Part shown: piece after piece, positions 782 through 58,030 of the stretch | Layout of the letters: each line of letters opens with the position of its first letter | How positions within the stretch are numbered: position 1 is the first letter of the stretch | DNA from: a virus | DNA: 64,000 nt | IMG/VR virus record: IMGVR_UViG_3300043411_002794 | Span: 64,001-128,000 of that record | Strand: one strand, 5' to 3' | Made by a program: the position numbers and the translations under genes | Notes under the pieces: generated by a model | Databases searched by the model: none | What the model was told of the DNA's origin: nothing | Seen by the model: only the letters and a program-made list of their open reading frames with translations

Positions 782-1726
782 TCATACGACGTGCGAACGG
801 CTGTTACCGTGTGCCCACGGTGGTGCTGGTAACAGCGGCTTATCGGCGCCGTCTTCGATGAGTCGTTTGGTAAAGATTCCTTTAAGTCGAGCATACGCCG
901 GAGCCCGGTCACGATCGCCGAGTTTGCGACCCACCAACCAGTCGACGTAAGTGCTGCTGGCGGACAAGCTCATCAAGCACTTAGTGAATTGACTGTCCGT
1001 GATCTTCTGCGTCTTCGCCGAGTACTTGGTAAGCACGATACGGCGGTACAGCCACGCGCAAAGCGTCAGGTTAAGCGACGCCCACAAACGAAAATACTCC
1101 TGGTCGTTGCCCCAGGCCTTGAAACAACACTGCAAGAATCGCACGATCTGCTCGCCGTCTTCCTGCGTCATCTGTTTCGCAAGCGCAGCGCCACTGATAT
1201 TACGTGCACCCGGCACCAACGGCGCCGACGTCGACCAGCTGCGCACCAGCGCAGACATCGACAACAACGAGGAGGTACCCTCGCGGCGAATCTGCCCGTA
1301 GCCGACAAACGGGCAATGTTTCCGAATCGTCTGTAGTACCGGAGAACACGGCTCAAGCCCGCGCATGATGTCGTCGGGCTTCATGGAAACTAAGTGCGAG
1401 TTCAGTGCCACGAACTCTTCGGCCAACTCGGCCATCGAGCTACAGTAGCACGTACGCGCATCGACGTAGCCTTCCGACAATTCACTCAGCAGGAAGGCGT
1501 GGCGGCGTTGTCGCCCGTCAATCAGGTAGCGAGTACCGTCGACGACGCCGAACGTAATGATTCCCGGCAAAACGCCGCCGTCGGTCTGCAGCCGTTCAAC
1601 CAAAGCGAGAACAGCTGCGTTGACGGTATCTTCTCGCTGAAAATCCGGCAGCCGCCAGTCTTGCGCTTGTTTACGCGTAAAGTGCAGTGTATCGACAGAT
1701 GTCTTCGTAACACGGTTCTTACTCAT
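782..1726 (-). CDS. ParB/Srx-fold N-terminal domain protein (DUF262/DndB-like)
   Basis: motifs WRLPDFQRE and YLIDGRQRRHAF resemble the PxxQR...IDGQQR/DGQHR signature; start overlaps the NAMPT stop. Confidence 0.6.
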   Translation of the reverse strand: MSKNRVTKTSVDTLHFTRKQAQDWRLPDFQREDTVNAAVLALVERLQTDGGVLPGIITFGVVDGTRYLIDGRQRRHAFLLSELSEGYVDARTCYCSSMAELAEEFVALNSHLVSMKPDDIMRGLEPCSPVLQTIRKHCPFVGYGQIRREGTSSLLSMSALVRSWSTSAPLVPGARNISGAALAKQMTQEDGEQIVRFLQCCFKAWGNDQEYFRLWASLNLTLCAWLYRRIVLTKYSAKTQKITDSQFTKCLMSLSASSTYVDWLVGRKLGDRDRAPAYARLKGIFTKRLIEDGADKPLLPAPPWAHGNSRSHVV

Positions 1727-3198
1727 TAGCGGTCAAAACTCCGTACCCGCTGCCGAATGTCGAGCAGCGTGTTGTTATAGGTAATCACGCCGTCTTCAAA
1801 GACGGTGTTCAAGTAGCTGGCGTCGAAGGCATCCCGCATCGTCACCTTGTCGCAGGTGATGAAGTTGCCGCCGGCGTCGCGGTAGAGTCGCATGAAGCCC
1901 TTGAGCGATTTCTTATTGGGATCCGTGATCGGATCCTTTTCAATCTCGCGGACTTCGTCGTTGACGCGGACAACGGTCGCCTTGATGGCGTAACCGCTCG
2001 TGTCCCGGGTATGGTTGCGGAGGATCCCGCCGACGCCGATCACGAGGTTCTCGGGCGAGTAGCCCATCTCGCGAAGGTTGGCCAGCACGCGTTCGTAGCG
2101 GGCCAAGAACATGCCGTCGCCGTAGATCAGGCGTACGTGCGGATCGAGGACCTTGTAACCCTGCTTGTTGACCGTATGGCCGAAGGTCTTGTCGAGCAGT
2201 TGGATGCAGCCCAGTCGCTCCGGGCTATCGATTTCTGCGGCCGGGTCGCCACAGATGATCAGCTCTGGATCGCCCGAGTCCGGCCGGAAGACGACCTGCC
2301 CGTCACGGGCCATGATCTGATCTTTGAGCCGCGGCGCGAAGTCCGTCAGCACGTTGTAGATGCTGTACGTGTCGCTGACGATCGAGACGTGGCCGGACGG
2401 GTATTCTTCGAGCATGTGCACGAAAGCGTCGAACTCGGCCGTACGGCCGTAGCTGCACATGACCGAGTGCTCGCTGGCCGGGACCGACATCATGACCGGC
2501 TCCACCGCGTCCACGGCGTCGTAAAACGCGTCGGCGTACGGGGCGGCCGGAACCGTGTCCGAGCCGAAGAAATTGGTCAAGTGCGCAACGCCGGAGATCC
2601 CGGCACTCTCTTCCGTATCGGCGCCGCGGTAGCCGAAGTCGTGGACCGAGAAGCCCATCCACGGCCGCACTTCTTCGTCGACGCATTCCCGCCAGTTCTT
2701 GAGGACGACTTGGCGGTAGGTGTTGCTGCAGGTGGCCACGGTGTTCGTGTACCAGATCTTGAGCAGCAACGACTCGAAGAAGCCGACGACCCAGTAGAAC
2801 TCCGGCAGCGTGTTGGAGATCGTCATCAACACGTTACGGGCCGGAAGGATCGTCCCTTCCGGCACAGCCATGATCTTGAGCGGGATCCGGCCGTGGTTAA
2901 TGAGCCTCGCAATCTTGTCTTTAATCTTGTCCGGGCACGGCTGCCGCAGGATCTGCTCGTAGTACTTGAAGAACTCGACGGCCATCCACGGCTCGAGCTT
3001 CATCGTCAGGTACCGGCGGAGGTAGTACTGCAGCCCGAAGAAAACCGTCCGCGGAAAGGTCTTGGTGCTCCGAGCCATCAAGTGCGAGTACACGAAATCG
3101 CAGCCCGGGGCGTACTGAGACATATGCCCCAGTTTGTAGACGTCCGTGAGTAGCAGCGGGTTCGTGCGAAGCGTGACGTGCTGAGGGATACCGTTCAA
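1726..3198 (-). CDS. nadV: nicotinamide phosphoribosyltransferase family (NAMPT/NadV; possibly Namat of NARP1)
   Basis: motifs TDVYKLGHMSQY, VHDFGYRG, PASEHSVMC, VSDTY, RPDSGDP, LIYGDG; AGGAG SD upstream of a TTG start. Confidence 0.93.
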   Translation of the reverse strand: MNGIPQHVTLRTNPLLLTDVYKLGHMSQYAPGCDFVYSHLMARSTKTFPRTVFFGLQYYLRRYLTMKLEPWMAVEFFKYYEQILRQPCPDKIKDKIARLINHGRIPLKIMAVPEGTILPARNVLMTISNTLPEFYWVVGFFESLLLKIWYTNTVATCSNTYRQVVLKNWRECVDEEVRPWMGFSVHDFGYRGADTEESAGISGVAHLTNFFGSDTVPAAPYADAFYDAVDAVEPVMMSVPASEHSVMCSYGRTAEFDAFVHMLEEYPSGHVSIVSDTYSIYNVLTDFAPRLKDQIMARDGQVVFRPDSGDPELIICGDPAAEIDSPERLGCIQLLDKTFGHTVNKQGYKVLDPHVRLIYGDGMFLARYERVLANLREMGYSPENLVIGVGGILRNHTRDTSGYAIKATVVRVNDEVREIEKDPITDPNKKSLKGFMRLYRDAGGNFITCDKVTMRDAFDASYLNTVFEDGVITYNNTLLDIRQRVRSFDR

Positions 3199-3207
3199 GC
3201 GAAGCTC

Positions 3208-4116
3208 CTAGAAAACGTCGAAAGGAAGACGATACACATGCGGCGGCGAAGTGTGTTCCTCCCGCCAGAAAGAGTTTGTTGTAGCAATCGTGGCGTAGTG
3301 GGCTTTCAGCGAATCGAGCCCCTTGGAAAAGATCCCGTGCGAAACAAATAAATGCTTCGCTACGGCACCGCCAGCGGTAAGTGCGCGCGCCAGCAGCTCG
3401 AACGTCGCGCCGCCGTCACAAATATCATCGACCACCAGACAACGACAGCCGCGAACATTGCCGCTAAGTTCGTAACTGGTGATGTATCCGGTGTTGAGAT
3501 CGCGCACCTTGTTGCCGATGACGACGCGATGCGACAGATTCAGTTTCGCCATCTTTTTAGCGGCACCGGCATCCGGCGCCACGATCACGAGCTCGGTTTC
3601 ACCGGATCCGAGTAACGTCGCCTGTTGCTTCACGTGCGATTCGTTCGTGATGATCAGCGACTTGATTTCAAGTGCGTCCGTCATCGCTGCGACCACGTCC
3701 GAGTGCGGGTCGAAGAAGGCGACTTTTTCAAACTCAGCCAGCTTCAATTGTTTCAAAAACACTTTAAGGCTGAACGATTCGCCGGGCACCATCACGCGAT
3801 CTTGTCGTGCATACGGCACGTACGGAATGAACCCGTACACGCGCCAATCGCGACGACGGCACGCATCGGCCAGCAGTAACATCCGCTGAATATCACCGCT
3901 GCTGCGAAGCCGTGCGACAATAGTTACAGGCGTGTCTCTCGGCCAGCCTTCAAATCTACGCAACTTGACGTGCTCTTCGCCGCCGTGGAACGTAAACGCC
4001 TCGAATCGCGGGGAGGCGTCACGACGGGTTTCGTTGTCGCCGAGGGCGGGCGTCGGACAATCCAGATCCAAAAAGATCATCGATAATGCCTTGCAGGAGA
4101 TACGATATAAGGACAA
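3208..4116 (-). CDS. prs: ribose-phosphate pyrophosphokinase-like protein (possibly Adps of NARP1)
   Basis: motifs PYVPYARQDR, FFDPHS, VAPDAGA, LVVDDICDGGATF, VSHGIFSKG. Confidence 0.9.
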   Translation of the reverse strand: MSLYRISCKALSMIFLDLDCPTPALGDNETRRDASPRFEAFTFHGGEEHVKLRRFEGWPRDTPVTIVARLRSSGDIQRMLLLADACRRRDWRVYGFIPYVPYARQDRVMVPGESFSLKVFLKQLKLAEFEKVAFFDPHSDVVAAMTDALEIKSLIITNESHVKQQATLLGSGETELVIVAPDAGAAKKMAKLNLSHRVVIGNKVRDLNTGYITSYELSGNVRGCRCLVVDDICDGGATFELLARALTAGGAVAKHLFVSHGIFSKGLDSLKAHYATIATTNSFWREEHTSPPHVYRLPFDVF

Positions 4117-4715
4117 ATTTCACGCGGCTCGATCCAGCTTTCGTCTAACACGGCGTTCGGATTTCCCGCCGCCTGTATTTGTTTCAATTCAGCCTGTGCC
4201 GCTTTTCTACGTGCAGCGATCTGCTCGTAGCGATGATTAAGGTCGCGCGCCATTTCGTCGGCACGATTCGCCAGCGACTCATGAAAGTCCGCGGCCGAGT
4301 CAATACCATGCAGCAGCCGTTCGCGGACAACTTGCGGTACGCCTAGCGACAAAATGTTTTCACGAAGCAGTGTAGTCTGATCCTTAAACCAGACGCGGCC
4401 GCCGACGGACAACGGATCATCGAAGATTCGCTCGGGAACAATGTGTCCCGGCAAAACCATCCCGTCCCAGCCGCAATTACGAATGTAGTGCAGCGTCTCG
4501 GTGCGCGTTTCTTGCAGGATGAACTGGAACACGGCAATACGGGCCTCGTAAGCCGTTGGCGCCGAAGTGTGATACGCGGACATATCGCCGGAACCGGCGT
4601 CGTACAAAGCGCAGACAACGGTAAACGGCTTGAGCGGAGTATTGCCGTAACGAGGAAACAGCGGATCGGGGTCGCCGTCCGTTTGAAGATCAATCGAGCG
4701 TCTTGCCGTGCTCAT
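4077..4715 (-). CDS. hypothetical protein
   Basis: start trimmed to MSTARRS (ATGA overlap with upstream stop at 4712). Confidence 0.6.
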   Translation of the reverse strand: MSTARRSIDLQTDGDPDPLFPRYGNTPLKPFTVVCALYDAGSGDMSAYHTSAPTAYEARIAVFQFILQETRTETLHYIRNCGWDGMVLPGHIVPERIFDDPLSVGGRVWFKDQTTLLRENILSLGVPQVVRERLLHGIDSAADFHESLANRADEMARDLNHRYEQIAARRKAAQAELKQIQAAGNPNAVLDESWIEPREICPYIVSPARHYR

Positions 4716-5503
4716 GGTTCCAGGTTCACTAGCCAAATCGTGCCGTAGTCTTGTCCGACCTGCGATCGCCATTGATCGCGGATCAGTGCTTCGATGTGCT
4801 CCGGAAGCGAGTTACTGAGTTCGCCGTGATCGTAGACCAGGAAGACGTCAGAGAACTCGTGGGGTTCGCCGCCGCGATGCCAGGTCGCCGCAAAGCAGCG
4901 CGCCCGGTGGTGCCAGGACTGGTTGAGCCAGGCCTTAAACTCAGCGTCCGCAAAGATATGCGGGCATTCCCATCGCAGCGTCGGAATCGTCTCCACGGGC
5001 GTCACAGTCGTGCCCCGGAGACGTAAATGGTGTTCTCGGGTCCGGCGATTCCCGGTGTCCCGTGCGGGCCGCCCAGGTTCAACACCCAGATCTGCTGATT
5101 CTGATTCCAGATTGTCGCCCGGCCCGTCAGCAACTGGCCGTGCGGCGTCTCGATCCCCACCTGGGAGCCGATCTTGATCTGGTTGAACAGAACTTCCCGT
5201 TGAAACAGACCCGGCAGCCGGGTCCTGCTGTAGCCGTTCTTCTGCAGCCACATGTCGAGGCGGGAGCCTTTCGTTGCGGTATTCACGCCAGTTCCAGTGA
5301 TAAATTTCATTTGTGTTGAGCGCGAGATCGATCATCGCACCGCTCGCCGGCGAGTAATTGAGCAGCTCAATCACACCGTTTCCGCTTTGCGACATGTGTC
5401 GCAGCATTTCCTGCAGGCGAGCAGTCGCCTCTTGCGTCGCATCCGCTTCTAGCCGAATGCTCAGCTGCAGCGGGTGCGTCGTTATGAGCTCGTAGGTGGG
5501 CAT
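4712..5503 (-). CDS. hypothetical protein (possibly two genes in one frame; probable internal GTG start at 5005)
   Basis: 263 aa ORF whose middle looks like an off-frame shadow of 5002..5310; GTGA overlap at 5002-5005. Confidence 0.45.
   Translation of the reverse strand: MPTYELITTHPLQLSIRLEADATQEATARLQEMLRHMSQSGNGVIELLNYSPASGAMIDLALNTNEIYHWNWREYRNERLPPRHVAAEERLQQDPAAGSVSTGSSVQPDQDRLPGGDRDAARPVADGPGDNLESESADLGVEPGRPARDTGNRRTREHHLRLRGTTVTPVETIPTLRWECPHIFADAEFKAWLNQSWHHRARCFAATWHRGGEPHEFSDVFLVYDHGELSNSLPEHIEALIRDQWRSQVGQDYGTIWLVNLEP
5002..5310 (-). CDS. hypothetical protein nested in 4712..5503
   Basis: 102 aa with globular, protein-like composition; its stop overlaps a GTG start. Confidence 0.6.
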   Translation of the reverse strand: MKFITGTGVNTATKGSRLDMWLQKNGYSRTRLPGLFQREVLFNQIKIGSQVGIETPHGQLLTGRATIWNQNQQIWVLNLGGPHGTPGIAGPENTIYVSGARL

Positions 5504-7567: not shown

Positions 7568-7576
7568 GTTGGGTTT

Positions 7577-7843
7577 CTAATTACCTGATTTGGTAAGTTG
7601 CGTAAGATGGCTCTTCCAGGTACCGTCGTCCCCGAAAGTTCGCAGGTCGATCGCCGCCGAGCAGACGCCGCGATCAAACTCAGCGTTGCTGGCAGCAACT
7701 TTTTCGTAGTCATGCCAGAACTGGTGAGGCTTGCTGTTTAAGCGAGCCAGAAGGCCGATGGCGTAGCTCTGGCGGGCTCTCAGCTCGCGAAGCGTCATAC
7801 CGGCCATCCAACGGACCAACGCGTCTACGTGCTCCGTAGGCAT
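7577..7843 (-). CDS. hypothetical protein
   Basis: start trimmed to MPTEHV. Confidence 0.5.
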   Translation of the reverse strand: MPTEHVDALVRWMAGMTLRELRARQSYAIGLLARLNSKPHQFWHDYEKVAASNAEFDRGVCSAAIDLRTFGDDGTWKSHLTQLTKSGN

Positions 7844-9123: not shown

Positions 9124-10326
9124 CTAGGTCGCGATGCAGCTGCATTCACAACCGGCACAAACGGATTTCATTTGTAGGTTGAGCTTCGGTAGCGGTTCAC
9201 CCATGTCTTCGGGCGTGAACTGCTCGATGAAGTCGTGCCATTCGGGGATTTCAAGCCCGCCGGCAAACGCCTGCTGATTGTCGATGATCTCCTGCGGCGC
9301 CGTCGCCGTCAGGAGATCGATCTCTTCGGCCGGGAGAAGTTTGTGCTCCCGAATGAACTGGGTCATCATGCCCGGCATCTTCTTGCCGCCGCGATTGCCC
9401 TTGCGGCCGCGACGCCAGAGGCCCAGTACGCCGGTGGCGTTGCGTCCCCGACGCGGCTGCTTGGGAAGTTCCTTTTGGGCCCGCTTGCCGCCGTCGCGCT
9501 TCGGACGGGCGTTCTCCGCGTCGATCTCTTGGCAACGGAGCCGCCACGCGGCGAGCTTCGTCTCATATTGGCGATCGAGCTCGTCTTGCGGGATGTGGCC
9601 TTCGAGCCGCGGGAGCGCCCGGGCCTCCATGATCACGATGTACCGCAGGTAGATCTTCTTGAAGTGCTGCAGCTCTTCCGGCTGCGTAGCCGGGCAGAAG
9701 ATGCATGCCGACTTCACAGGCTGCCCGCCGCTTTCGACCCAGGTCTTACCGGTCCAGTCGGACCAGCCCGGGAGGTTTTCTTTGCGGATCTCGGCGATGC
9801 ATCGCTCTCGATCCCAGCCCCATTCGATGAGCGGGTACCAGTAGTTGTACTTGGGGTCAGTGTCCTGGCCCTTGATCGCTTCGTTATAGCGACGCTGATC
9901 TTTGGGTCCGGCGTCGTAGCCGATGACCTTCGTGACGCGCTGCCCGGCGGCCCAGGCCGCTTGAGCCGTCGCCCATTGCTCGCAGAAGGCATTCTGCGGG
10001 GCGACCTTCCATTTGAGCGAACAGCTTTTGAAACCAAACGCCAGACTCGGCAGCGTGCCGTTGGTGAGGCAGTTCTCGCCGAGGGAGTGATATTTTGGCC
10101 AGTGCATGAAATCTTGCACGACATTTTTAACGACGGTTACAGGTGGAAAACCAACCGATTGCAGCCATCGTTGTGCTACCGGAAGGTAGTCGTATGTTTC
10201 TTGTCGCTCGTTGCCGGTGTCGGCAAATAAAATGAGATCCGGCCGAATGTTCTGGCGGCGAAGTCCGATGATTGCAGCCCAACTGTCAACACCGAGGCCG
10301 TAGGATACAACAAGGGGCTTATGCAC
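9124..10326 (-). CDS. PAPS reductase / adenine nucleotide alpha-hydrolase-like protein
   Basis: PP-loop VVSYGLGVDS, LFADTGNE, CSLKWK, WYPLIEWGWDRERC, KSACIFCP; GGAG SD before a GTG start. Confidence 0.8.
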   Translation of the reverse strand: MHKPLVVSYGLGVDSWAAIIGLRRQNIRPDLILFADTGNERQETYDYLPVAQRWLQSVGFPPVTVVKNVVQDFMHWPKYHSLGENCLTNGTLPSLAFGFKSCSLKWKVAPQNAFCEQWATAQAAWAAGQRVTKVIGYDAGPKDQRRYNEAIKGQDTDPKYNYWYPLIEWGWDRERCIAEIRKENLPGWSDWTGKTWVESGGQPVKSACIFCPATQPEELQHFKKIYLRYIVIMEARALPRLEGHIPQDELDRQYETKLAAWRLRCQEIDAENARPKRDGGKRAQKELPKQPRRGRNATGVLGLWRRGRKGNRGGKKMPGMMTQFIREHKLLPAEEIDLLTATAPQEIIDNQQAFAGGLEIPEWHDFIEQFTPEDMGEPLPKLNLQMKSVCAGCECSCIAT

Positions 10327-10603: not shown

Positions 10604-10810
10604 TCATGAAAGCGGCGGCTCGACGGGCAGCGGCGGCGTGATAAATGCACGGCCCGATAGTTCGCGGCTACGCATGAACGCAGTGATTTGTTCGTCGGTC
10701 GGCTCTTGCTCGTCAGTCAGCTCAATCACGAACGTAGGTGGACGATTACGCAGAAAAATATCCGGCGTACGACTAGACGGCGGGATCACGGTGAGAATGC
10801 AGACTTTCAT
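10604..10810 (-). CDS. hypothetical protein
   Basis: start trimmed to MKVCILT (ATGA overlap). Confidence 0.5.
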   Translation of the reverse strand: MKVCILTVIPPSSRTPDIFLRNRPPTFVIELTDEQEPTDEQITAFMRSRELSGRAFITPPLPVEPPLS

Positions 10811-11310
10811 CTGTTCACGATCTTGGCCAGGAGTTTCTTTTGTTTGTACCAAGCCATTTGTGCGCCTTGGCTTAGACCTTTGGTGGCCCAGTTGCAGTTC
10901 ATGCCGATGGCCGGAATGATCTGCGTTAAGTACTCAGCGTAGGGCTCGCCCATGTGGAGCTCGATAAGAATGTCTTTGAACGCGGCTCCTTCGTGTCCCG
11001 TCCCTTGTGCGTCTCCGTACTTGAGCTTCACCAGCAGGCTCTCGACAACACGAAGCGACCAAAGTGCCCGTTCTCCGGCCGGGGCGCCGACGAGCGTTTT
11101 GTCATACGTCGAGATGTACTGGTCCGGAGACAGCAGTCCGAGTTGTGCAGAGGCAATGTACCACTGATCGCCCGTCGCTTCCGCGTAAGTGCGGCGGGCG
11201 TTGAAGATGCTGCCGGTATAAAGCGAGCGAGCCGTTACGAGGTCGTTGGTTCGTTGCTTTGCCTTCCCGCAGCCGACGATAATTATTCGAGTCGGTGTTT
11301 GGTGTCCCAT
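10807..11310 (-). CDS. DUF6884-like protein
   Basis: IIIVGCGKAK, ARSLYTGSIF, WYIASAQLGLLSPDQYISTYDKTL; TAGGAG SD directly follows the hexamer array. Confidence 0.7.
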   Translation of the reverse strand: MGHQTPTRIIIVGCGKAKQRTNDLVTARSLYTGSIFNARRTYAEATGDQWYIASAQLGLLSPDQYISTYDKTLVGAPAGERALWSLRVVESLLVKLKYGDAQGTGHEGAAFKDILIELHMGEPYAEYLTQIIPAIGMNCNWATKGLSQGAQMAWYKQKKLLAKIVNR

Positions 11311-11324
11311 ATTCTCCTAGTTCG

Positions 11325-12557
11325 TCAGCATTGTCGTAGTCGCAGCCACAGTCGTAACGCAGTCGTTGTCGTCAGCACGGTCGTTGCCGTTGCCAATGCC
11401 GTTGTCATAGTCGAGGTCAGTGTCCGCAGCGTTGCCGCAGTCGTTGTCACAGTCATGAACGAAGCGCCGTCATCGTCATCAGCGTCGTCGTTGTCGACGT
11501 CGTGGTCGGAGCAGATGCCTAAGTCAACGCCGTCAGCAGTGCCGCAGTCGGTGACGAAGTCGCTGCCGGTGTCGTTGCGCTGTCGTGGCCGGAAGCGTCG
11601 TCGATGTCGTTGTCGTTGCGCCGTCAGTGTCGTTGTCGCAAGCGGAGACGTAGTCGTTGTCGCAGCCGTCGTCATTGCCGCTACCGAAGTCGCCAGCGCT
11701 GTCGCTGCCGTAGCCGCTGCCATTGCCGACACGTCGGGGTTGTCGATGTCGCGGGCTGCAGCGTGGTCGTTGCCGGAGTCGATGTCAGAGACGGTGTCGA
11801 TGCCAGTGTCGTGGTCAGATGCAATGTCGCGGACGCAGTCGGAGTCATGGTCGATGCGGCGTCTCAGTCGAAGCCTGCAGCGTAGTCACTGTCGTTGTCG
11901 AGGTCAGGACATTGTCGTTGCCGTTGCCGTGGGCAGAAGCATCGTCAACGTCGAGGTCGTCGTCACTGCGTGGTCGGCAGCGTCGTCGTTGCCGGAGCCA
12001 GTGTCAAAGCCGGAGTCGGTGTCGTCGTCTTTACGCTGTCGTGGGATCAGCAAGGACGGAGTCGGAGCCGGTGACGTAGCCAGAGACGATGTCGCTAGCG
12101 CAGTCGTAGTCAATGCCGATGCATGGACATAGCCAACAGCGTCGTCAAAGTCGCTGCACGGTCTCCGTCGAAGTCATCGTCGAAATCGTTGCCAGTAGCA
12201 TTGTCGTTGCCGCTGCCGTTGTCGGGACGTAGCCGGGGCGTCAGCGCAGTCAATGCCGTTGTCGTCGTCAATGTCACTGCCGGAATCGCCGTCGTTGCCT
12301 CTAGCGTTGCCGCAGTCGTTGCCGCAGCCGGCACGCTGTCTATACCGGAGTCGCAGCCGATAGCGTTGCCGCTGTCGGCGTCATTGCCACAGCCGTCGTC
12401 ATGGTCGTTAGCAGAGTCGTGGTCGCTTGCGTAGTCAGCGTCGTAGGCAGAGCCGTCGCCGATGTCGTTATCGAAGTCAAAGTCACTAGCGTCGTCAGTG
12501 TCGTCGTCGAAGTCGTAGTCACGATCGTTGCCGCTAGCAGTGTCGCTGCCGTCGACG
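11325..12557 (-). ncRNA. periodic YGRC/NN array (~193 hexamers + 15 pentamers); candidate VIPR-like guide RNA array
   Basis: minus strand reads CGTC-GA CGGC-AG CGAC-AC TGCT-AG CGGC-AA CGAT-CG TGAC-TA CGAC-TT ...; phase slips by -1 fifteen times so no frame is held; starts 7 nt after the RAMP stop. Periodicity is directly observed; RNA status is inferred. Confidence 0.75.
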
Positions 12558-12564
12558 GTTCGGG

Positions 12565-13236
12565 TTAAACTTCGGTGCCTTCTTCGACCACGTCGCACGA
12601 AACGACGCGGCCGCGGCCGTACCCCATTTTACGGCACGCGCCGACGCCGACGAAGTAGCAGGCGTAGTCGATCAGGTGCTTCACCGAGTTTTCGTCGTAG
12701 ATCGTCCGCATGATCCCGACGGCGTCGAAGTTGCGGAGCAGTTCGTTGGACTGGAAGCGGCGCTGCCCGCCTTCTTCCGGCTTGACGTACCGCTCGTAGA
12801 TGTCGTCTTTCTCGAACTTGCCCGTTTTGAAGTCGCCCAGCCGCAATTTGCTGCGGAGGTCGTCTTTCGGGAAGCGGCTGCCCGCCGGAGCCGACGTGGT
12901 GGCCTGCACCAGGGCACCCGAGAACTGGTGACGGGGAATGATGATCTCCGTCTTCATGTTGTTCGGGTCGATGCGGTACCACTTGCGCTCCGCGGCCTTG
13001 CAGAGGCGTTCGTATTCGTCTTGCGTAATCCCTTCCTTTTTGAGGTAGGACTGCAGGGCCTGGGCGCGTTTGTCGTCGGAGCGGGCCCGGTTCATGCCGG
13101 ACTTCTTCTGGATGTCGATGACCGAATTGCGTTCCGGCCAATACGGGTCGGCGATGTAGTCGTCGAAGTGGACGACCACCTTGAGAGTCTTGATTTGATC
13201 GAAATCGTTCGGGATCGTGCCTTTGGACTTAGTCAT
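12565..13236 (-). CDS. stand-alone RAMP-superfamily (Cas7/Csm3-like; Vipr-like) protein
   Basis: start trimmed to MTKSKG (223 aa); N-terminal beta strand TLKVVVHF; IIIPRHQFSGALVQA matches the RAMP IPxSxLKGALR helix; C-terminal Gly-rich loop GVGACRKMGYGRGRV. Confidence 0.8.
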   Translation of the reverse strand: MTKSKGTIPNDFDQIKTLKVVVHFDDYIADPYWPERNSVIDIQKKSGMNRARSDDKRAQALQSYLKKEGITQDEYERLCKAAERKWYRIDPNNMKTEIIIPRHQFSGALVQATTSAPAGSRFPKDDLRSKLRLGDFKTGKFEKDDIYERYVKPEEGGQRRFQSNELLRNFDAVGIMRTIYDENSVKHLIDYACYFVGVGACRKMGYGRGRVVSCDVVEEGTEV

Positions 13237-13453
13237 GTTGCTTCGTGAAAACCTGTGTGAATATTTTGGGATCTTGAAAACTCGGATGAGCCTCGACCAG
13301 CTTGTGGATGCAGATCGTGCTGTGGAGTCGCCGGGCGGTCTTCGGATCGCAATCCGGATCCGCCAACATGGCTTCAAAGGCCCGGGCCATGTCGGCGTGA
13401 TAGCCGCCGTAGGTGCCGGGTCGGTAGTGTCGTCGCCAGAGAATTTCAAGCAC
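13229..13453 (-). CDS. hypothetical protein overlapping the RAMP start
   Basis: 74 aa; its stop lies 8 nt into the RAMP gene (ATGACTAA). Confidence 0.6.
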   Translation of the reverse strand: MLEILWRRHYRPGTYGGYHADMARAFEAMLADPDCDPKTARRLHSTICIHKLVEAHPSFQDPKIFTQVFTKQHD

Positions 13454-28371: not shown

Positions 28372-28381
28372 GGGTTTCTAA

Positions 28382-28789
28382 TTACCGAGGGTCGTTTGCG
28401 GTGGGAATGCCGTGCTCGGTCAGCCACTTCACCTCTTCGGCGAGGGCGACGTTTTTGTCGAAGTACGGACCGAGGACCGGACCGCCGACGGGGAGCATGT
28501 CTGCCCACCAGGAGTTGGCGGGAAGAAGTTCTGCGGCCGTTACCAGATCATCAAGATGGATCTCGTCGGCAAATACTTTGCGGTTGTTGGTGGCGAGCCA
28601 ACGAAGCGCAGTGTCGGAAAGATCACCAGGCGGCTCCACGTGGCTCGCCCGGCGCGTCTCTGTGCCGCCCAGGGCGGACAGGATCTTGGCGGACTCGGGC
28701 GAATGAATCGCCCGAGTGCCCGCCGCACGGTCCCGCGGAACCACGATGGTGATTTTCTTACTCACCGCTGATGTGCTCGCGCTGTTCAT
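28382..28789 (-). CDS. hypothetical protein
   Basis: 135 aa co-oriented ORF. Confidence 0.55.
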   Translation of the reverse strand: MNSASTSAVSKKITIVVPRDRAAGTRAIHSPESAKILSALGGTETRRASHVEPPGDLSDTALRWLATNNRKVFADEIHLDDLVTAAELLPANSWWADMLPVGGPVLGPYFDKNVALAEEVKWLTEHGIPTANDPR

Positions 28790-56461: not shown

Positions 56462-58030
56462 TCACTGGCACGTGCCGGAAACCAGGCGAACCCTGGGCTG
56501 CCGTTCGGAGACCAGAGAGGAATCAACAAGATCAGTAAGCGGGTTCATCGCCGTAAAGCCTGCCGTGGTCTCAGTTACCGACGTGGCTGCAACCGTGTCC
56601 GTGTCGGCGGTCAGGTCGACTACGAGCAACAGGGCGGTGTGCGGCGGTATCAGCTTACGCAGGTGGCGGGCATTGTATAGGCCCACACGATCGCGGCCCA
56701 TACCAGATGATTTGACGCGAACCAGCACGGCATGGTTGCGAAGGACGTTGGTAATTAGAAACCCAAGCGGGTTGATCGTCGTCGGCAAATGGGTCGCTTT
56801 TGGCTCTCCACTCGGCTGGGTCCGTGTGTCCAGCAGCATCGCTAACGTGCCGTGCCGCTTGTCACCTTCCGGCGGACAGGCAGGGTCGCGAATGTCGGCT
56901 ACGCCGCGAGCATGCAACTCGTCGAAGAACTTGATCACGTCCAACGGCTGACCACCGATTGGAAAACTGACGTAAGTGTGGCCGCTTGAATGTTCTTCAT
57001 CGACGGTCAGCGTCACGTCCTTGTTCTCAAAGATCAGGTCGCCGTAAAAGCACGTTGCCAGGAAGCCGCGGTCGAGTGCAAGCGCCAATAGATCGCTAGG
57101 CACCTGGCCGCGATTGAATTCATAGATCTGCAGCGCGTCTGTCAGCGGGTCGCCTGCTCGTACCGTATCGCCGACGGCGACCAACGGCAGGACACCGCGG
57201 GCAAACTTGTAGACGTTCTTGTCGGTGGCGATGAGTCCGCTGTTGCAGCCGTACTCCACGACTTCTACAACTTCAGTGGCTTCCACGACCAACGGAATGC
57301 CGGTCATTGCCTGCAGGGCAAGCCGTAACGTACGTCCGGTCATGCCGCCCACTAGGGCGTCAAAGAGTGCATTTAGCAGATCGCGATACCCGCGACTGCT
57401 TTGCATCTGGATGCCGAGCACGTAGCCGAAATGATCGTACGCGTACTGCCAGTCGAATTGGCCGCGGAACACCCATAGCCCGGCTTCCGTGTCCGTCTGC
57501 TCTTGCTCCGAGAATATGGGTCGCGTGGCCACCAGCGGATCGGTGAGCGGATTCTCGCGGAAGATGATCAGCTCGCGATCTCGGTCAATAAGATAGTCGA
57601 CGTTCTCGACCCAGGTACGGGACGGCGACGTAATGCGATTCATGATCAACGGCGCCGACACCAAGGCGGACGGCAACGGGAACGCGTACTGATTCACTGA
57701 ATTTGGTGCATCGTATTGAATAGCGCTGTTGTAGGTTAGCCCGCTGTCGCCGTAACGCGGCAGCTCTGCGTTGGCTGGATTGAGATCCGATTCCTTCAGC
57801 TGCAGAAAGTACCAGTTCTCGGTATGGAAGAGCGGCACCTTGCTGCGGGCAACGCAGGCGGCCGCCTCCAGCAACATTAGGTGATTCTGTGCCTCCTGCA
57901 AGACGTTGACCTCGGCGTAAGACTCCATCTGCGACTGTTCGCCGTAGATGCGCGCCCAGAAGCTCCCCAAGGCCGCCAAAAACTGGTGCGGCCGGTCGAA
58001 GTTCGACGACGGGTAGGTGAAGGTCGGCAT
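56462..58030 (-). CDS. baseplate wedge-like protein
   Basis: directly downstream of the baseplate J-like gene; YRDLLNALFDALVGG...LALQAMTGIP helical wedge pattern. Confidence 0.55.
   Translation of the reverse strand: MPTFTYPSSNFDRPHQFLAALGSFWARIYGEQSQMESYAEVNVLQEAQNHLMLLEAAACVARSKVPLFHTENWYFLQLKESDLNPANAELPRYGDSGLTYNSAIQYDAPNSVNQYAFPLPSALVSAPLIMNRITSPSRTWVENVDYLIDRDRELIIFRENPLTDPLVATRPIFSEQEQTDTEAGLWVFRGQFDWQYAYDHFGYVLGIQMQSSRGYRDLLNALFDALVGGMTGRTLRLALQAMTGIPLVVEATEVVEVVEYGCNSGLIATDKNVYKFARGVLPLVAVGDTVRAGDPLTDALQIYEFNRGQVPSDLLALALDRGFLATCFYGDLIFENKDVTLTVDEEHSSGHTYVSFPIGGQPLDVIKFFDELHARGVADIRDPACPPEGDKRHGTLAMLLDTRTQPSGEPKATHLPTTINPLGFLITNVLRNHAVLVRVKSSGMGRDRVGLYNARHLRKLIPPHTALLLVVDLTADTDTVAATSVTETTAGFTAMNPLTDLVDSSLVSERQPRVRLVSGTCQ

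Follow-up and report, generated by a model that had tools for sequence, protein, structure and literature searches.

A phage-encoded stand-alone RAMP gene and its adjoining six-base periodic array as a candidate VIPR-like RNA-guided system

A stretch of 64,000 nucleotides of viral DNA (positions 64,001 to 128,000 of IMG/VR record IMGVR_UViG_3300043411_002794), referred to here as the window, carries a stand-alone RAMP gene that is followed on the same strand by a long periodic array, in which a largely fixed tetramer alternates with a variable dinucleotide (NN). The source genome is a single viral record of 192,194 bp with a CheckV completeness of 93%, and phage hallmarks are present in the window, including a gpA-type terminase, baseplate J, collagen-like fibres or tail fibres, a thymidylate synthase and a methyltransferase. 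The RAMP gene exists as a single copy, no second RAMP being found in the genome with either the family profile or the Pfam RAMPs model at E values up to 1, and the array is the only period-6 tract of large size in the 192-kb genome. The locus is proposed to be a VIPR-like RNA-guided system that is carried by the phage and works in a six-base register, a reading which is supported in silico and to which a probability of roughly 0.8 is given.

The gene terminates at a TAA codon (12567-12565), and its product counts 223 aa when read from the ATG; starting at a TTG, a longer frame extends to 13449, but the alignments of the homologues begin only at about residue 16. Seven nucleotides separate the stop codon from the first array unit, and the array then runs for 1,233 nt until it adjoins the Shine-Dalgarno sequence of the next gene (AGGAG-N5-ATG). 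This arrangement had been described in the original prediction, which was made from the letters of the sequence, and direct reading reproduced it in full, including the spacer, the shared strand, the length and the end of the array (Table 1). The same prediction had likened the locus to a known type of viral system, VIPR.

VIPR was described in 2026 and is argued by its authors to be older than CRISPR. The system combines a Vipr RAMP protein with vrRNAs of 9-16 YNNGG units, each repeat being bound by one protomer, which sequesters the GGY motif and leaves the NN dinucleotide to pair with DNA, every third target base being skipped; the targets are competing phages and satellites, and seven types are known, all described with pentanucleotide motifs, among which type II is found in Escherichia phage SUSP1 and a Pseudomonas fulva prophage (10.64898/2026.04.26.720920, 10.64898/2026.04.26.720927, 10.64898/2026.10.15.759431). 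The unit takes the form YNNGG, or NNNGG, YNNNG or NNNNG. Staggered or non-canonical VIPR arrays are continuous and lack long tails (legend of fig. S18, 10.64898/2026.04.26.720920). A later survey of periodic intergenic clusters listed bands at 5, 18 and 60-79 nt and, apart from these, the periods 10, 8 and 7, with period 6 unmentioned; it also contained 21 non-canonical 5-mer clusters, for instance GAC/NN, CAC/NN and TGH/NN (10.64898/2026.10.21.760802). The system named in the original prediction is real and published, every published form of it being built from 5-nt units, and no vrRNA paired with a hexamer term was found in the literature searched.

The RAMP hallmarks that had been attributed to the 223-aa protein were confirmed by structure prediction. 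The AlphaFold2 model, for which 64 homologues served as the alignment, reached a predicted local distance difference test score of 93.5 and a predicted template modelling score of 0.86, and displays in order a first strand (beta1), a three-helix bundle (about residues 34-82), the RRM helix (102-115), a long beta-hairpin thumb (about 145-178) and a glycine-rich G-loop, GVGACRKMGYGRG, at residues 197-209. All strong matches in the PDB were CRISPR RAMPs, the best of them Csm3, Cmr4 and the Cas7 of types VII and I. Foldseek gave E values down to 2e-6 for Csm3 and type VII Cas7, and VIA-align yielded Z scores of 12.9 for E. italicus Csm (9g9a_G), 12.3 for Cmr-beta (6s6b_I), 11.4 for Csm3 (6ae2_B), 9-10 for type I and type IV Cas7 and up to 8.7 for Cas6. 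Among viral proteins, the nearest structural neighbours are stand-alone proteins from phages and archaeal viruses that measure about 200 aa; one of them carries an annotation as a RAMP.

At the sequence level, searches of Pfam, PHROGs and PADLOC with the protein itself returned no match, PADLOC likewise giving none for its upstream neighbours, and weak Pfam matches were obtained for some family members (RAMPs in 4 of 65, Cas6 in 8 of 65). The family profile matched the solved SUSP1 Vipr (PDB 36pp) weakly, at the G-loop (E 0.6), and its best match among the CRISPR RAMPs of the PDB was Cmr6, at the G-loop only (E 0.07). When the family was compared by hhalign with a purpose-built alignment of the SUSP1 Vipr family, a probability of 97% and an E value of 1.1e-10 were reached over 156 columns, which cover the bundle, the thumb and the G-loop. 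Because of this profile-profile match, the 223-aa protein is, as judged from sequence profiles, a distant member of the Vipr superfamily. The comparison with Cas7, Csm3 and Vipr folds which the original prediction had proposed as a check thus turned out in its favour.

Dynamic-programming segmentation divided the array into 210 units, comprising 192 hexamers, 15 pentamers and 3 three-base slips, in close agreement with an earlier hand count of about 193 hexamers and 15 pentamers. The same-base autocorrelation rises to 0.48 at lag 6 and to 0.475 at lag 12, whereas lags 1, 2, 4 and 5 give 0.14-0.20 (0.20 at lag 5). Within the hexamer, position 1 is C or T in 96% and position 2 is G in 98%; position 3 is A, G, C and T in 55, 26, 13 and 5%, and position 4 is C in 84% and T in 15%, the commonest tetramers being CGAC (67), CGGC (34), TGAC (31), CGCT (15), CGTC (9) and TGGC (9). 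The unit can accordingly be written as Y-G-R-C-N-N, whose last two positions are variable and rich in A/T (64%), the genome having 60% G+C. The pentamers do not represent random decay: 13 of 16 read Y-G-Y-NN, whereas a pyrimidine occupies position 3 in only 36 of 196 hexamers (Fisher p 4e-7). A three-base scaffold, Y-G-Y, seems able to replace the four-base Y-G-R-C; such pentamers resemble the published non-canonical 5-nt VIPR units (TGH/NN). No RNA structure signal was detected in the array, the folding energy giving z scores of -0.3 and +0.1 against shuffles, and Rfam returned no family for it at E values up to 1 except a chance miRNA match; the candidate explanation as a known or structured RNA family was rejected on these two results.

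The array is further organized into about 22 blocks, mostly of 7-13 units and each closed by a YGCT unit, a division which the original prediction had missed. The 23 YGCT units are spaced by 9.3 ± 3.2 units, with a coefficient of variation of 0.34; random placement gives 0.90, and such regularity was reached in none of 20,000 permutations. The block size is near that of the published vrRNAs (9-16 repeats). In the arrays of relatives, which reach up to about 230 units, the pattern is clear-cut and that of the window is a looser version of it: blocks of 7-12 variable units are followed by a fixed end, such as TGACTT-AGCT in L071, AGACGT-AGACGA-AGCT in L060, CGACAA-AGCT in L049 and the 7-mer CGCCCGT in the CGCC class. 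Three relatives (L002, L057 and L058) possess a conserved, non-periodic, leader-like segment of about 100 nt before the first block, where the window has the 7-nt spacer only.

For the family to which the gene belongs, one search returned 65 clusters (90% identity) and an exhaustive one 133 representatives (50% identity), the closest relatives (P0001-P0003) being 72-88% identical; no homologue occurred among the GenBank phages (50,697 records). In total, 113 loci were compared, 25 of them from IMG/VR, 8 from genomes (Planctomycetota, Methylomirabilota and Actinomycetota metagenome-assembled genomes, MAGs) and 80 from metagenomes, and the association was counted in the 81 loci with at least 300 nt on both sides of the gene. 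A period-6 array abuts the gene upstream, downstream or on both sides in 77 of these 81, against a background of 1.8% of windows more than 1.5 kb away, which answers the question, raised with the original prediction, of whether homologues carry periodic arrays as well. The autocorrelation of the 25 viral loci peaks at lag 6 with 0.49-0.76, lag 5 remaining at or below 0.39. The fixed scaffold is Y-G-N-C throughout and falls into three classes, TGGC/TGAC, CGGC/CGAC (that of the window) and CGCC/CGTC; it lies on the gene strand, with the pyrimidine before the G, in 125 of 129 distinct arrays. On a RAMP tree of 92 leaves the scaffold class changes 3 times, compared with 33-46 times when the labels are shuffled, which shows that it is a clade-level trait and, relatives sharing labels, not evidence of co-evolution. 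In the alignment of 92 relatives, the G-loop aromatic (RKMG-Y-GR; Y206, at about 12619-12621 in the window) is Y in the CGRC, F in the TGRC and W in the CGYC clades; residue 206 is a candidate scaffold-reading residue, as a lead only, the pattern being confounded with phylogeny.

Some of these loci have peculiarities of their own. L008 and L082 carry a six-base array that reads GGC-NN-C. In an 11.5-Mb Planctomycetia MAG (L028, G001:C21:83418-85791) the RAMP gene appears to be split, residues 2-161 and 150-210 being encoded about 1.7 kb apart; the second piece contains two TAG stops, and a period-6 array of 900 nt lies farther downstream. In L018, L019 and L020 (about positions 1000-5000) four or five separate CGCC-type arrays are situated upstream of the RAMP gene, near which open reading frames (ORFs) of about 90 aa recur on both sides that could encode a clade-specific accessory protein.

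The regular scaffold also permits a reading in which the array is protein-coding, encoding in the frame NNY-GRC an acidic dipeptide-repeat protein of the type (X-Asp/Gly/Ala)n to which the RAMP gene would be unrelated. That frame is stop-free, ORFs of 162 and 135 aa are found on the array strand, and 41 of 129 related arrays (arrays of at least 30 units) are devoid of a frame-breaking unit. However, the frame is stop-free by construction of the pattern, and its openness is therefore not evidence of coding. Neither ORF extends over the whole array, since the frame is displaced by the 15 pentamers, and the Y-G-R-C-N-N pattern persists past every shift; moreover, the tract is preceded by neither a start codon nor a ribosome-binding site, and the 162-aa ORF begins within the RAMP gene. 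Frame-breaking units occur in 88 of the 129 related arrays, the 7-mers CGCCCGT of the CGCC-type arrays change the frame at each block, and the supposedly fixed codon would have to switch among Asp, Gly, Ala and Val by clade. The coding reading was rejected on the frame shifts by pentamers, the frame-broken relatives, the 7-mer closers and the clade-switching codon, and can hardly be right. The statement of the original prediction that the array holds no reading frame is correct in that none spans it, and has to be amended for the two shorter ORFs.

Comparison of close relatives revealed that the arrays are renewed much more quickly than the gene, whole blocks at a time. For L037 and L039 a gene identity of 99.3% is accompanied by an array identity of 64%, and for L002 and L058 the values are 98.3% and 68%, the array identities being about what a shared scaffold alone gives (expected 67%). 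For L078 and L079, whose genes are identical, the arrays are set apart by a single 60-nt block and three substitutions; in L002, L057 and L058 some blocks are common but reordered and others are different. These observations bear on the proposal that the array RNA is a scaffold or decoy for RAMP polymerisation, which would sequester the Cas7 or Vipr of a host or rival or build a nucleoprotein structure, with the NN positions merely drifting. Satellite-encoded decoy vrRNAs have been reported for VIPR (10.64898/2026.10.15.759431), the NN positions are skewed to A/T, and no target was found in the shallow searches described below, all of which would suit this proposal. Nevertheless, neutral drift would account neither for blocks of guide size that end in regular closers nor for arrays lying close to the identity of the bare scaffold beside genes that are 98-99% identical, and it would leave unexplained how whole blocks are gained, lost and reordered between phages whose genes are nearly the same; a scaffold or decoy role is regarded as very unlikely.

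The reading as a VIPR-like guide system with a six-base unit draws its support in silico from the RAMP fold together with the family-wide arrays, and the resemblance to VIPR extends over several levels. In both cases a lone phage-encoded RAMP of about 200 aa is involved, with a single RRM, a helical bundle, a thumb and a G-loop as well as homology at the profile level; both occur without a CRISPR array or cas genes, in a mostly viral setting (the relatives here residing in IMG/VR contigs and MAGs). Both are associated with tandem short repeats on the same strand in which a fixed scaffold alternates with hypervariable NN positions, and both have about 8-12 units per guide, many guides per array and a quick turnover. 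The likeness to the non-canonical or staggered VIPR arrays is closer still, as these are continuous, have no long tails, use non-GGY scaffolds including GAC, contain about 10 repeats per guide and lie beside a protein with a Vipr-like fold, although all of them have period 5. The differences from VIPR are also distinct. The unit consists of 6 nt here (Y-G-N-C plus NN) instead of 5 nt (GGY plus NN or a related pentamer), and a single array combines 5-nt (Y-G-Y-NN) with 6-nt units. The blocks end here in a single YGCT or AGCT unit, whereas VIPR employs a structured 3' tail (a pseudoknot in type II) or a ribozyme. A vap gene, which is "typically" beside vipr, has no conserved counterpart here. 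The array, at 1.2 kb in about 22 blocks, greatly exceeds the four SUSP1 vrRNAs in length.

The best structural matches, with Z scores of 9-12.9, are the backbones of Class 1 CRISPR systems (Cas7, Csm3, Cmr4), and the step of 6 nt per protomer which defines the register of Cas7 filaments equals the unit found here. Unlike these backbones, the locus lacks a repeat-spacer array, Cas5, Cas6, Cas1 and Cas2 as well as a large and a small subunit, and its guide would be non-contiguous, four of six bases being fixed. Neither cas1 (PF01867) nor a CRISPR-like array was found in the whole genome, in which no 18-mer recurs at least three times at a spacing of 45-100 nt, and a Class 1 CRISPR-Cas effector was rejected for want of both. 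The remark in the original prediction that cas1, cas2, cas6 and a CRISPR array are missing therefore holds genome-wide for cas1 and the array. A further alternative retains RNA guidance and supposes that the protein targets RNA as the type III proteins Csm3 and Cmr4 do, or applies the equal 6-nt register of Cas7 and not the gapped code of VIPR. It agrees with the identity of the closest solved folds, which are the RNA-targeting Csm3, Cmr4 and Cas7-11, with the shared 6-nt step, and with the replacement of the Vipr residues that read GG. Against it, the profile is nearer to Vipr (97% by hhalign) than to any CRISPR RAMP of the PDB (Cmr6, E 0.07), and the four fixed bases leave at most two or three of six informative, as opposed to five of six in Cas7; a single guide searched at skip 4 gave no match, which is weak evidence. 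The alternative is judged unlikely, with a small chance of being correct.

For the VIPR-like system with a six-base register, the mechanism can be drafted from the published template (bioRxiv 10.64898/2026.04.26.720920, 10.64898/2026.04.26.720927). By analogy with the solved Vipr-vrRNA filament of SUSP1, the array would be co-transcribed with the RAMP gene, and its RNA would be cut at the YGCT units, or simply bounded by them, which would yield some 22 guides, each roughly 8-10 units long. Each hexamer would be occupied by a single RAMP protomer, the G-loop, the thumb and the RRM face presumably sequestering Y-G-R-C and presenting the NN pair, and the string of NN pairs may then read a gapped DNA target in a competing phage, another mobile element or the host, which would thereby be silenced. 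In one relative (L001), direct reading disclosed a hairpin and a T-run after the array, which would fit co-transcription of the array there. The RAMP gene overlaps the upstream 74-aa ORF by 8 nt, which suggests that it forms one operon with the upstream genes.

Several results weigh against this reading. The two residues that read the guanines of GGY in SUSP1 Vipr, D177 and W178 (10.64898/2026.04.26.720927), are not kept, A200 and C201 standing in their place, so that the solved structure cannot serve as a model for how the scaffold is recognized; the arginine after the pair is retained (R179 in SUSP1, R202 here) and is, like residue 206, a candidate contact. The NN positions are poor in GC, GG, GT, CT and CC, unlike codon positions 1-2 of a GC-rich target. 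A scan of the RAMP-array locus for a sigma-70-like promoter and a terminator gave nothing above chance, and the invariant 14-mer GGTAATTAGAAACC, a candidate promoter word of the phage's own polymerase with three exact copies in the window and one more with one mismatch, is absent within 4 kb of the RAMP locus, the nearest copies lying at 7572 and 28373. No conserved partner gene, vap-like or other, was identified, non-RAMP families recurring within 3 kb in at most 7 of the 113 loci, and the array has no conserved 3' tail or pseudoknot.

The target searches belong to the same list. Twenty guides tested at skips of 0-5 on the phage's own genome performed no better than shuffled guides, and 4,200 eight-unit windows from all arrays showed no excess of matches at skips of 0-6 in 0.75 Mb of related loci, in which the 12 exact matches at skip 4 are probably unmasked array remnants. 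Exact patterns searched in IMG/VR, for two guides at skip 1 and for one guide at skips 0, 2 and 4, produced 0 matches. The count was again 0 when a single guide of 13 units was run at skip 1 against 401 Planctomycetota genomes, up to 3 mismatches being allowed. These negatives are weak and shallow, as exact matching loses real targets and the host is not identified.

The genes on either side of the locus are summarized in Table 1. The 74-aa ORF has no family assignment and is not conserved in other RAMP loci, and the DUF6884 gene next to the array end has no homologue in the 113 RAMP loci, in which none of the window's neighbour genes recurs. Because it is not conserved beside the RAMP in other loci, the DUF6884 gene is probably not part of the RAMP-array system. 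It adjoins a PAPS-reductase-like gene (phrog_424), with which it may constitute a DNA-modification pair.

Table 1. Positions in the window of the RAMP gene, its array and surrounding features
Feature	Position	Strand	Basis
Vipr-like stand-alone RAMP gene, 223 aa from ATG	12565..13236	-	ORF, AlphaFold2 fold, hhalign to SUSP1 Vipr
Spacer CCCGAAC, 7 nt, stop codon to first array unit	12558..12564	-	read directly
Period-6 non-coding array, unit Y-G-R-C-N-N, 1,233 nt	11325..12557	-	autocorrelation, segmentation
Block starts (minus-strand coordinates)	12557, 12533, 12485, 12407, 12359, 12300, 12240, 12194, 12135, 12094, 12046, 11976	-	
Block starts, continued	11935, 11876, 11757, 11692, 11638, 11591, 11532, 11478, 11461, 11425, 11371	-	
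74-aa ORF, stop overlapping RAMP start by 8 nt (context only)	13229..13453	-	
DUF6884 / DpdC-like gene (context only)	10807..11310	-	Pfam DUF6884 E 7e-29; PADLOC DpdC / PDC-M57A
PAPS-reductase-like gene (phrog_424)	9124-10326	-	
GGTAATTAGAAACC, exact copy	7572-7585		exact match in window
GGTAATTAGAAACC, exact copy	28373-28386	-	exact match in window
GGTAATTAGAAACC, exact copy	56750-56763	+	exact match in window

Taken with the likenesses and differences set out above, the most likely explanation is that the locus is homologous to VIPR and works like one without the pentamer feature, the tail or the vap gene, that is, as a six-base version of VIPR. A bolder claim, that the six-base family is a distinct branch of RNA-guided RAMPs between VIPR, with its 5-nt unit, and the Cas7 backbones, with their 6-nt step, and that it has a reading rule of its own, is tentative and on balance doubtful. 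Its rule would then consist in a target skip other than 1, or scaffold position 3 would carry information as a third base; cleavage of the array at the (A/Y)GCT block closers might be carried out by the RAMP itself, in the manner of Cas6, and the mixture of Y-G-Y-NN and Y-G-R-C-NN units would show a one-base register shift.

A family of at least 130 sequence clusters whose six-base unit matches the step of every Cas7 backbone widens the guide grammar, and it provides a concrete link for the proposed path from VIPR to CRISPR. It would also offer a second compact, single-protein programmable binder of DNA or RNA with a different scaffold, and once the reading rule is known, the large arrays would become a readable record of the elements fought by these soil and sediment phages.

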